Below, in pieces: positions 3,001-6,000 of a stretch of DNA of 21,415 nt. Position numbers: made by a program. Each line of letters opens with the position of its first letter. The stretch's first letter is position 1. The stretch is from a virus (taxonomy: Duplodnaviria; Heunggongvirae; Uroviricota; Caudoviricetes): IMG/VR virus record IMGVR_UViG_2617270975_000009, positions 1 to 21,415 of that record. The stretch is one strand, 5' to 3'.

Positions 3001-6000
3001 CCAACAGAGCAGCAATACGTTGTTAATGCTAATGACGCAATAATGGCAATACTCCGTCAGGAAACAGGGGCAGCTATCGCACCTGCTGAAATGTCAAAAT
3101 ATTATCAAATGTATTTCCCTCAGCCTGGCGACTCCACAAAAACCATTGATACCAAGCGCCGGAAGATGGAAAACCAGTTCAATTCGCTGAAAGCTGCTTC
3201 TGGTCGAGCTTATGATGCTTTGCGGGTTATTTCAGCAGTTGACAGAGGAACTTCTTCTTCGTCGCAGACATTGCCGCAATCTGAGCAGGTATCACAGCCA
3301 GCAGCCAGCAGTAACTTTTCTTCACTATGGGGTGATTAATGGCTAAAGCATGGAAAGATGTTATCGCCTCTCCACAGTATCAGGCGTTAGCACCAGAACA
3401 AAAAGCGCAGGCTCAGGAGCAATACTTCAATGAAGTCGTTGCCCCGCAAGCCGGAGAAAGTGTAGAGCAGGCTAAGCAGGCTTTTTATGCTGCCTATCCA
3501 CTACCATCAACGAATGAAATAGACCGATCCCAATCAGCAACTCAAAATATTCAACATACATCATCTGATAATTCTCTTGCGTCAGGGTATGCAAAGTTAG
3601 CTACTCAGCAAAGAGAGGGGCTTGAGCGTTCAGCAGAACAGGGAGCCAGTCTTGGGGCTGCGATGCGCGATGCTATAACAGGCGAAAGCCGAATGACTCC
3701 AGAGATGGAGAGACTGCAAAATGTCACCTCTGCCCCAGAATTGAACTCACTAAGCATGGATGCCCTAAAGGCTGGATGGTCTCAACTTTTCGGCTCTGAC
3801 GCGTCTCAGGAAAAGATTCTTCAGGGAATGGGGGCGACATTAAGGCAGGATGAGAAGGGGAATACTATCGTTTCTCTGCCATCAGGTGATTATGCCCTGA
3901 ACAAGCCGGGTTTATCACCGCAAGACCTGACTTCGTTTCTTGCTAATGCGTTGGCGTTTACACCAGTGGGCAGGGCTGGAACGGTGCTTGGTGCCATAGG
4001 AAAATCAGCAGCTACAGATTTAGCACTACAGGGAGCCACCAGCCTTGCTGGTGGAGAAGATATTGATCCGTTACAAACGGTAATTTCTGCTGGCATTGGT
4101 GGTATTGGTAAGGGGCTGGAAAATACAGCGAGTGCGGTTTCGAGGGCTGTTCGTGGTGATATGTCGCCTGAAGCAAAGGCTGCTGTCGACTTTGCATCGG
4201 AAAGAAATCTGCCGTTAATGACCAGTGACATGCTGAAAGATAAAACCTTTATGCAGAGTCAGGCTCAGACATTAGGCGAAAGAGTTCCTTTTTTTGGAAC
4301 CGGTAAGAATCGGCTGAATCAACAACAAGCACGAGAAAATTTAGTCAGAACATTTAGCGATGGTCTGGGTGGCATTTCTGATAAACAGCTTTATGAATCT
4401 GCGACTAAAGGGCAACAAAAATTCATTGAGGCAGCAGGAAAGCGATATAACCGCATAATTGACGCTATGGGGGATACCCCTGTCGATCTCTCAAACACGG
4501 TAAAAGCTATCGACAATCAGATTGCCGTGTTAAGCCGCCCGGGCAAATCTCAGGATAGAGCCGCGGTAAAAGTCTTGCAGCAATTTAAAGACGATATCAC
4601 CAGCGGACCAAATGACCTGCGTCTGGCGAGGGAAAACAGAACCGATCTTCGAAAGCGATTTATGGCGTCATCTGACACTGTTGATAAAGATACGCTCCAG
4701 AAAGCCAGCGATATTATCTACAAGGCATATACGGCGGATATGAAAAAAGCCGTAGCCAAAAATCTTGGAGCAGACGAAGCCATTAATATGGCAAGGGTTG
4801 ATCGCTCATGGTCTAAATTCAATGACATGATGGGAAGAACGCGCGTTCAAAAGGCAATAGCCAGCGGCAAGGCCACGCCTGAGGATGTAACAAAACTCGT
4901 TTTTAGCCAAAGCCCATCAGAACGTTCTCAGCTTTACAGGCTTCTGGATGACAATGGTAGGCAAAACGCACGAGCAGCCATAGTTCAGAATGCTGTAGAT
5001 AAGGCGACTGATCCGTCTGGAAATATCAGTGTTGAGAAGTTTATTAATGCGTTACACCGGAACAGGAAGCAATCAGCAACTTTCTTTAAAGGCGTACATG
5101 GAAAGGAACTGGACGGCGTTATTAAATACCTCAACGATACAAGACACGCGGCAAAAGCGAACGTTCAAAACTTAAATGGTCAGCAGCTTTATGGATTGTT
5201 AGTTGGTGGTGGCATCATAAACGCAGCAGTATTAGCGGGGATGCTAAAAACGGCTGCGTTTGTTGTTCCTGCTGCTGGTGCCGTAGGCGGAGCAGCGAAG
5301 GCATACGAAAGCCCTGTTATACGAAATGCCTTGTTACGTCTGGCAAATACGCCAAAAGGTAGCACAGCATATGACAGAGCGATCAGTACGGTCACACAAT
5401 CGCTCACCAGAGTCGCACAGGCATCACAAAAAGAAGCTCAATAACTGGTTAGCCATGGATGGCTAATTTTTGTTCTTTGCTCTCATCCATAGGTAAAGAA
5501 GGGAAAGAACAAGACAAAAAACAGAGAATAGATAACCTACCTCATATGGTGCGCCAAAAAAATTAGCTATTGATACGGGCAAAAAAGCTGAGGCGATCAA
5601 AATTGAAAGGCAAAAAATAAGCCCAGTAATATAGTTTATTAAATTCTTAAATGAGAAACGTTTTGCTTGATTTACGGTCTTAACGAACGATCGCTTAACG
5701 ACGGATAAAAGCAAATAGATGGCGACAGTTGCTAATGCCCCTTTCCACCAGTCTGGATATAGTTTTGCGACAATCAGACCAAGGAAAACCATGATGACAG
5801 CCTGAGCATTCACACCAACCCTCCCTTTAGCTTTGTTTAGAATGGCAATCATCATATATCCAAGACATGGCATTTGGTACATAGCTTGGGTCGGGATTTC
5901 AAATCCGATCCCCGTTGATGGGGCCGTTACAGTACGCGCATATCCGCTTTATGTGAAACAGGAAGATTTTTCTGATATCACTGCCACAGCAAAACACCAA

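Follow-up and report, generated by a model that had tools for sequence, protein, structure and literature searches.

A small gene convergent with the ejection-protein operon

The viral record IMGVR_UViG_2617270975_000009 (Caudoviricetes), analysed here over its whole length of 21,415 nucleotides (the window), contains genes for ejection proteins of the P22 type. Directly beyond the last of these, the gene for a 701-residue gp16-type ejection protein that we assign to a class II (3339-5444, plus strand; PHROG 770 'DNA transfer protein', E 2.5e-163), lies a small gene on the opposite strand, referred to below as ORF116, whose product is a predicted inner-membrane protein. An antisense gene right after the gp16-like gene had been described in an earlier reading of the sequence alone (the sequence-only reading), and this arrangement was borne out: the two genes are convergent, and their stop codons, at 5442-5444 for gp16 and 5465-5463 for ORF116, leave 18 nt between them. 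A hairpin followed by a T-run (5447-5478, plus strand), resembling an intrinsic terminator for the ejection-protein operon, overlaps the ORF116 stop codon and is also kept in the Edwardsiella, Yersinia and Escherichia coli loci.

The extent of the gene depends on the choice of start codon. A six-frame list of open reading frames (ORFs) gives a mechanical ORF at 5463-5882 (minus strand) of 139 amino acids when read from the first ATG, and RefSeq annotates a version of 130 amino acids (WP_000560496.1). The coding sequence is most likely shorter, at 5463-5813 (minus strand, 351 bp), starting with the GTG at 5813 and yielding 116 residues. Several lines of sequence comparison favour this start. 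A Shine-Dalgarno site, GGGAGG (5820-5825 on the minus strand, read 5825-5820), is located 6 nt upstream of the GTG; in alignments with the loci of Edwardsiella (L003) and Yersinia (L004), the window is similar from precisely this site onwards (GGAGG in the other two), and the sequence further upstream is unrelated. In an exhaustive HMMER search, the distant homologues (35-38% identity) were all 115-120 amino acids long and began with MN.Q at the position of the window's GTG. Furthermore, a sister allele (P0021, in island L027) read from the same GTG produces a canonical signal peptide (MNQLKRLVVSGLLFASFGANA, followed by E). The 139-residue ATG start, together with the 130- and 109-residue starts of RefSeq, was rejected in favour of the GTG on account of the conserved Shine-Dalgarno site and the alignment, and we regard all three as artefacts of start calling; the 139-residue frame on which the sequence-only reading was based exists, but its length probably overstates the protein. 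The 5' leader of ORF116 (5814-5888, minus strand) moves with the gene when cassettes are exchanged between islands.

Homologues are known from E. coli, Salmonella, Edwardsiella and Yersinia and are annotated as hypothetical throughout; the gene is found in 229 of 5426 complete E. coli genomes, and some database copies are truncated or frameshifted. Homologues at 35-43% identity retain the same length and helix pattern. The ratio of nonsynonymous to synonymous substitutions (dN/dS, Nei-Gojobori) is 0.13-0.14 against the Yersinia copies, at a dS of about 1.2-1.3, and rises to 0.35-0.37 when the comparison is with the Edwardsiella copy or with alleles from E. coli prophages. With dN/dS at 0.13-0.37, ORF116 is a real gene under purifying selection.

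The sequence-only reading had further described the gene as an AT-rich moron. The GC content of ORF116 (0.379-0.381) is indeed below that of gp16 (0.473) and of the window (0.483), and falls at the 2.4th percentile among stretches of equal length in the window. Its GC content at third codon positions (0.368), however, is close to the values for gp16 (0.399) and gp20 (0.390). Because third positions match those of the neighbouring genes, AT-richness was rejected as a mark of horizontal acquisition; the low GC content stems mostly from a composition rich in Leu, Ile, Phe and Val and makes a poor argument for a foreign source.

ORF116 encodes a predicted four-helix membrane protein

Kyte-Doolittle hydropathy, averaged over 15 residues, has four peaks of 2.3-2.6 near residues 12, 32, 71 and 101. 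An AlphaFold2 model built from an eight-sequence family alignment, although of low confidence (predicted local distance difference test score 62.7, predicted template modelling score 0.41), places helices at residues 3-18, 24-47, 54-85 and 90-115. At the level of prediction, both agree with the earlier proposal of a small inner-membrane protein with about four transmembrane helices. Lysine and arginine are concentrated in the C-terminal tail and in a central loop at about residues 40-56; the two short turns have the sequences YPDWW and GAPYE and are acidic or neutral. Since the positive-inside rule places the Lys/Arg-rich segments in the cytoplasm, the predicted topology is N-in/C-in, with four transmembrane helices, the two very short turns in the periplasm and thus minimal periplasmic exposure. 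The best-conserved part of the protein, MN.Q....LL.L.VAKLYP(D/E).W, corresponds to helix 1 and the first predicted periplasmic turn, and the eight aligned family members share a C-terminus of the form L(Y/L)LW.R...K.

The ORF116 protein had no family match in Pfam, PHROGs, PADLOC or NCBIfam; the Pfam set used did not include PF26849, the model for the P22 exclusion protein SieA, so the Pfam blank says nothing about kinship with SieA. A profile search of PDB sequences with the ORF116 family returned nothing, and a scan of genome contigs gave no confirmed relative. Searching 50,697 phage records by tblastn also produced no match, so no cultured phage among those records carries ORF116.

The position of ORF116 is that of sieA in P22

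SieA has been described as types A, B and C, of 164-212 amino acids (Leavitt et al. 2024, PMC10883804). Our comparisons covered types A and B, and the family models are Pfam PF26849 and PHROG 7745. P22 sieA, which encodes 164 residues, is convergent with gene 16 and lies 22 nt past it, and the geometry of ORF116 is the same at 18 nt, which agrees with the statement in the sequence-only reading that P22-like phages use this slot for superinfection-exclusion or immunity morons. SieA and ORF116 therefore share slot and orientation, each being convergent with gene 16 and about 20 nt beyond it. SieA has been demonstrated to be a small multi-pass inner-membrane protein, and ORF116 is predicted to encode one. 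The two were mutually exclusive in the loci examined, none of the ORF116-bearing loci also carrying a homologue of SieA type A or B.

Homologues of ORF116 likewise sit between gene 16 and the immI/tailspike region in complete P22-like prophages, which have coat, gp4, gp10, arc/ant and tailspike genes. In Yersinia enterocolitica (L004) the order is portal, scaffold, coat, gp4, gp10, gp7, gp20, gp16, ORF116, tailspike; in the L020 prophage ORF116 is followed by mnt/arc-like genes, an antirepressor gene and the tailspike gene; and in E. coli ZJ3920 (L026) it precedes the Arc/Ant genes. The homologues in these three loci thus lie in the slot between genes 16 and 9, convergent with gene 16, whereas the element in the window has no tailspike gene. 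Other ORF116 loci are primase-bearing islands.

There are also differences between the two proteins. With 116 residues as against 164-212, ORF116 is smaller than SieA and has no large cytoplasmic loop, and it is tied to another class of gp16. In addition, the ORF116 family is found on satellites of the phage-inducible chromosomal island (PICI) type, whereas sieA has been reported only in P22-like prophages (PMC10883804).

ORF116 accompanies one class of gp16

Twenty full-length ORF116 loci were examined (L003, L004, L006-L022). All twenty, which span four genera and two kinds of element, have ORF116 convergent with a class II gp16 gene and a few tens of nucleotides beyond it. The gp16 proteins of these loci are 66-100% identical to that of the window and about 30% identical to P22 gp16; the type of gp20 differs between the loci, and the other flank of ORF116 varies freely.

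Comparison of the gp16 proteins gave three classes with different occupants of the slot. Class I comprises P22 and HS1, whose gp16 proteins are 75% identical to each other, and has SieA of type A or B in the slot. Class II comprises the window, Yersinia, L020, phage N7 and L027, with mostly ORF116 in the slot; the window's gp16 is 62-93% identical to the Yersinia, L020, N7 and L027 copies and about 30% identical to those of P22 and HS1. Class III is represented by L005 (PHROG 6704), where the slot holds a different four-helix protein (P0022; 4544-4945, plus strand) that has its first 42 residues alone in common with ORF116.

The window is an EcCIMP1-like island

The sequence-only reading had assumed the setting of a P22-like phage. 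This assumption did not hold, as sequence comparison indicates that the window is instead the circular form of a PICI resembling EcCIMP1, an E. coli PICI that is mobilised by the P22-like phage Kapi1, undergoing excision, circularisation and transfer (Pick, Stadel & Raivio 2025, PMC11773190). Relative to an island integrated in E. coli 6409, the window is circularly permuted: 424-9714 corresponds to the right part of that island and 9688-20139 to the left part. The attachment (att) core TCCTATTATC occurs as a single copy in the window, at 9688-9697, and constitutes an attP-type junction there. In the integrated copies this decamer stands at both ends of the island, 19,711 bp apart in E. coli 6409 (L001) and 19,963 bp apart in MP1, the latter in agreement with the published spacing (PMC11773190), and in MP1 a tRNA-Thr gene adjoins the island. 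A terminal direct repeat of 391 bp (1-391 and 21025-21415) leaves 21,024 bp of unique sequence, and this overlap, together with the attP-type junction, fits a contig in circular or tandem form.

The island carries genes for an integrase, AlpA, antA/B, Ash, a TOPRIM/DUF927 primase, gp14, gp7, gp20 and gp16, a second AlpA, PerC and pRiA4b-ORF3. According to the RefSeq annotation of the identical integrated copy it has no head, tail or lysis genes, its only virion-related genes being gp14, gp7, gp20 and gp16. Outside 2078-5888, the EcCIMP1 sequence of the MP1 genome is 97.8-98.8% identical to the window. The window and EcCIMP1 thus have in common a backbone of about 98% identity, the att core, the gene set and the circular junction. 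A P22-like prophage remnant, considered as an alternative identity for the window, was rejected in favour of an EcCIMP1-like PICI in view of the gene set, the att core and the identity of the backbone to EcCIMP1.

The block in which the window differs from EcCIMP1 (2078-5888) extends from inside the gp20 gene, which starts at 1918, through gp16 and ORF116 to the leader. Here EcCIMP1 has a different gp20, a 906-residue gp16 of the CUS-3/HK620 type and a co-oriented gene for a 232-residue lipoprotein (L029; 6632-7330, minus strand), and it has no ORF116. Two further islands, L005 and L023, match the window over 5750-6400, which includes the leader, the Shine-Dalgarno site, the start codon and the first ~21 codons, and then diverge until inside gp20, so that 2471-5750 of the window is the stretch replaced in both. 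The exchange junctions therefore fall inside gp20 at one end and, at the other, within or slightly upstream of the 5' end of ORF116, between flanks that are 94-98% identical. The comparisons of EcCIMP1, L005 and L023 with the window thus show that, among otherwise near-identical satellites, gp16 changes hands together with the slot gene as one block.

A further locus concerns the same genes. In the viral contig L008 (IMGVR_UViG_3300045988_004969), gp16, ORF116 and AlpA_1 are 100% identical to those of the window and adjoin two tail genes of the P22 type (gp4 and gp10) together with a P22-like gp20, which suggests a recent exchange of the gp16-ORF116-AlpA_1 arm between a P22-like phage and the PICI.

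The window's island differs from EcCIMP1 in one additional respect, an insertion of the IS3 family. This insertion sequence of ~1.3 kb (20140-21415 plus 1-423) lies between the primase and gp14 genes, encodes an orfA of 108 and an orfB of 296 amino acids and has terminal inverted repeats beginning TGAACCGCCCCGGG. Neither the copy in E. coli 6409 nor that in MP1 has it, and the terminal overlap of the contig falls within it.

A possible function in blocking DNA delivery

ORF116 shares its slot with sieA, its product is predicted to lie in the inner membrane, and it is strictly adjacent to one gp16 class and exchanged with gp16 as a block. On these grounds we hypothesise that the protein could have the function of SieA without being homologous to it, and stop DNA delivery at the inner membrane. 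We hold this reading tentatively, at somewhat less than an even chance, since the exclusion phenotype, the target and expression in the resident state are drawn from position and linkage. SieA blocks DNA injection by P22-like phages, and escape from it needs changes in the C-terminal parts of gp16 and gp20 (PMC10883804). According to a 2026 preprint, gp20 forms a tube through the periplasm, the end of which stands as a 'foot' on the cytoplasmic membrane, and gp16 is the part that crosses the membrane (bioRxiv 10.64898/2026.09.03.749273). On the proposed mechanism, a resident P22-like prophage or EcCIMP1-like PICI would express ORF116 from its own weak promoter, and the protein at the inner membrane would hinder the incoming gp16 channel and the gp20 'foot' docking there. 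The protein would interfere with how the gp16/gp20 channel of incoming P22-like particles assembles or opens in the inner membrane, with a preference for particles carrying the gp16 class to which ORF116 is linked, and their DNA would never reach the cytoplasm. EcCIMP1 is reported to contribute to superinfection immunity without a known defence system having been detected in it (PMC11773190); islands of this type can thus protect against P22-like phages, which is circumstantial support for ORF116.

A number of observations weigh against a SieA-like role. The first concerns kinship: BLASTP of the ORF116 protein against P22 SieA gave an E value of 0.95; ORF116 did not match PHROG 7745 at E<=0.1, whereas P22 SieA itself matches at 9e-109; and hhalign of the ORF116 profile returned probabilities of 0.26% against a nine-member alignment of SieA type A and 0.08% against the type B SieA of HS1 (from E. 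coli HS). SieA has a conserved cytoplasmic C-terminal motif, FxRYPxEAxxFNK (PMC10883804), which we see in P22 SieA (FGRYPGEANGFNK) and in HS1 SieA (FNRYPGEARKFNK) and which is missing from all eight aligned ORF116 members. By these sequence comparisons the ORF116 protein is a positional analogue of SieA and neither its homologue nor a member of its family. Foldseek with the low-confidence AlphaFold2 model found no match in BFVD at E<=0.001. Moreover, SieA has a hydrophilic loop of ~50 residues, whereas the ORF116 protein is almost without extramembrane mass. The second concerns linkage, as simple genetic linkage also predicts adjacency to gp16, and the association has exceptions: the slot gene of the class II phage N7 (L024) encodes a 106-residue single-helix protein (5902-6222, minus strand), that of the class II island L027 (P0021) a secreted protein of ~125 residues (4105-4503, minus strand), and against 404 E. 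coli genomes with most of the class II gp16 3' region there are 227 with ORF116 (~56%). The third concerns expression, as no sigma-70 site on the minus strand upstream of ORF116 came up in a promoter scan, and a relaxed scan gave as the sole candidate -10 box in the leader a weak TATGAT (5856-5851) with a poor -35 region. Finally, EcCIMP1, the island with a measured immunity phenotype, does not carry ORF116, and its immunity is seen in helper lysogens only and not in non-lysogens, whereas SieA suffices alone (PMC11773190). With a prototype that has no ORF116 and a phenotype that needs the helper prophage, the evidence from EcCIMP1 partly counters a model in which ORF116 is sufficient on its own. 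Because of the linkage, the unrelated slot occupants, the lack of a recognisable promoter and the lack of an extramembrane domain, rival readings stay alive.

The best-surviving of these, which we consider unlikely but serious, is that ORF116 is a prophage or PICI membrane moron unrelated to the ejection proteins and that the slot is a permissive site for cargo; it might, for instance, be an abortive-infection effector that depolarises the membrane, a small protein that is toxic or resembles an ion channel, or a factor that alters some membrane process of the host. The slot does behave as a cargo hot-spot with unrelated occupants in L027, L005, EcCIMP1 and N7. These four (L027, L029, L005 and L024) are all without family assignment, which makes at least four such cargo genes, and the L027 secreted protein and the L005 four-helix protein reuse the leader, the Shine-Dalgarno site and the GTG start of ORF116. 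For ORF116 itself, no homologue turned up among exclusion proteins or defence models. Free cargo is hard to reconcile with the association of ORF116 with a single gp16 class in 20/20 loci, across four genera and two element kinds, while the other flank varies.

Among known small membrane proteins of phages, lambda RexB is a four-helix membrane component of the RexAB abortive-infection system and acts after injection. ORF116 is similar to it in size, in its four predicted helices and in being expressed, by the reading proposed here, from a prophage; it differs in having no adjacent RexA-like partner, as a RexB-type system would require, and no PADLOC or PHROG match. In keeping with this, there is no co-oriented neighbour gene and the ~1 kb upstream contains no annotated gene. 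T4 Imm and HK97 gp15 are small inner-membrane proteins of a resident or early-infecting phage that stop DNA at the inner membrane; they differ from ORF116 in helix number and in target apparatus, and no relationship in sequence was seen, the searches of PHROGs, PADLOC, NCBIfam and PDB sequences with ORF116 being blank.

On a rather improbable reading, ORF116 serves the linked gp16 as an accessory factor or one of self-protection, and would either shield the producer's inner membrane from newly made gp16 or gp20 or assist them. This reading would account for the co-inheritance and block exchange of ORF116 with gp16, and gp16 is membrane-active (bioRxiv 10.64898/2026.09.03.749273). Against it, ORF116 is convergent with the late operon, with a terminator-like hairpin between them, and so is not co-transcribed with that operon; phages with the same gp16 class also manage without ORF116, as N7 does. 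To our knowledge, P22 needs no factor of this kind. SieA, for its part, leaves the phage yield after induction unaffected (PMC10883804).

That ORF116 is a holin-like lysis protein appears very improbable. Its size and helix number are like those of some holins, and the top Foldseek matches were holins (LydA-type, E 0.31, probability 0.35), but these matches are not significant and derive from a low-confidence model, there was no holin match in Pfam, PHROG or NCBIfam, neither an endolysin nor a spanin gene adjoins it, the PICI is without a lysis module, and P22-like prophages have their lysis cassette elsewhere. A spurious or decaying ORF, which the purely hypothetical annotation, the three choices of start and the truncated or frameshifted copies might suggest, is effectively refuted by the dN/dS of 0.13-0.37 at dS up to 1.3, the conserved Shine-Dalgarno site and GTG, and the kept length and helices.

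Returning to ORF116 as an injection blocker, a broader form of that reading would see in it a new class of ejection-protein-specific blockers, unrelated to SieA, matched to one gp16 class and traded together with gp16 as an offence/defence cassette among P22-like phages and the PICIs that parasitise them; we consider this unlikely. If the cassette reading is true, slot genes of the ORF116 kind would underlie the unexplained immunity conferred by EcCIMP1-type islands, and it would also suggest that satellites carry ejection proteins partly to pass the exclusion systems of lysogens.

The island type and SieA are already known; the ORF116 protein family is uncharacterised. SieA is the only characterised system we know of that blocks the P22-type ejection-protein channel. 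If ORF116 does block it, a second, unrelated and smaller membrane protein would become available as an independent probe of the gp16/gp20 breach of the inner membrane and would allow a test of whether exclusion specificity tracks ejection-protein type. At 351 bp, ORF116 is also a clonable candidate type for the satellite-conferred superinfection immunity reported in 2025 without a known defence system. Even if it is ordinary cargo, the start codon and the identity of the element have been corrected, and a variable cargo slot with a shared leader has been defined.

Other features of the island

The genes upstream of gp16 complete an ejection-protein module on the plus strand: a gp14-like gene (DUF2824, 786-1247), a gp7-like gene (1241-1918) and a gene for a gp20-type ejection protein (1918-3339; Pfam Inj_translocase, E 5e-58). 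At 786-5444 there is thus a full P22-type ejection module (gp14, gp7, gp20 and gp16) in a PICI that has no head, tail or lysis genes. The EcCIMP1 paper lists genes of this module only as 'DNA transfer' or DUF2824 proteins, possibly for packaging (PMC11773190). Escape from SieA-type exclusion in recipient lysogens and sabotage of helper particles are possibilities for a satellite that brings its own ejection proteins.

Upstream of ORF116, the ~1 kb between it and the second AlpA gene (5889-6846) is 94-98% conserved among islands, including EcCIMP1, and has no annotated gene; the longest ORF there (5833-6213, plus strand) has no Pfam or PHROG match. A distant blastn search of the gene-free ~1 kb at 5814-6846 against phages gave a spurious 72-nt match alone, an Rfam search of 5300-9900 returned nothing, and ARAGORN found no tRNA in the window.

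An inverted repeat of 65 bp, with copies that are 93.8% identical, is found at 7613-7677, upstream of the PerC gene, and at 19754-19817, just downstream of the primase gene, and may be a shared regulatory site. On either side of the PerC gene there are, furthermore, paralogous small ORFs of 72 and 61 amino acids (7257-7475 and 8286-8471; beginning MTPREI.LLTIAKLEHGGHQL), the DNA of which is 81% identical over about 60 nt.

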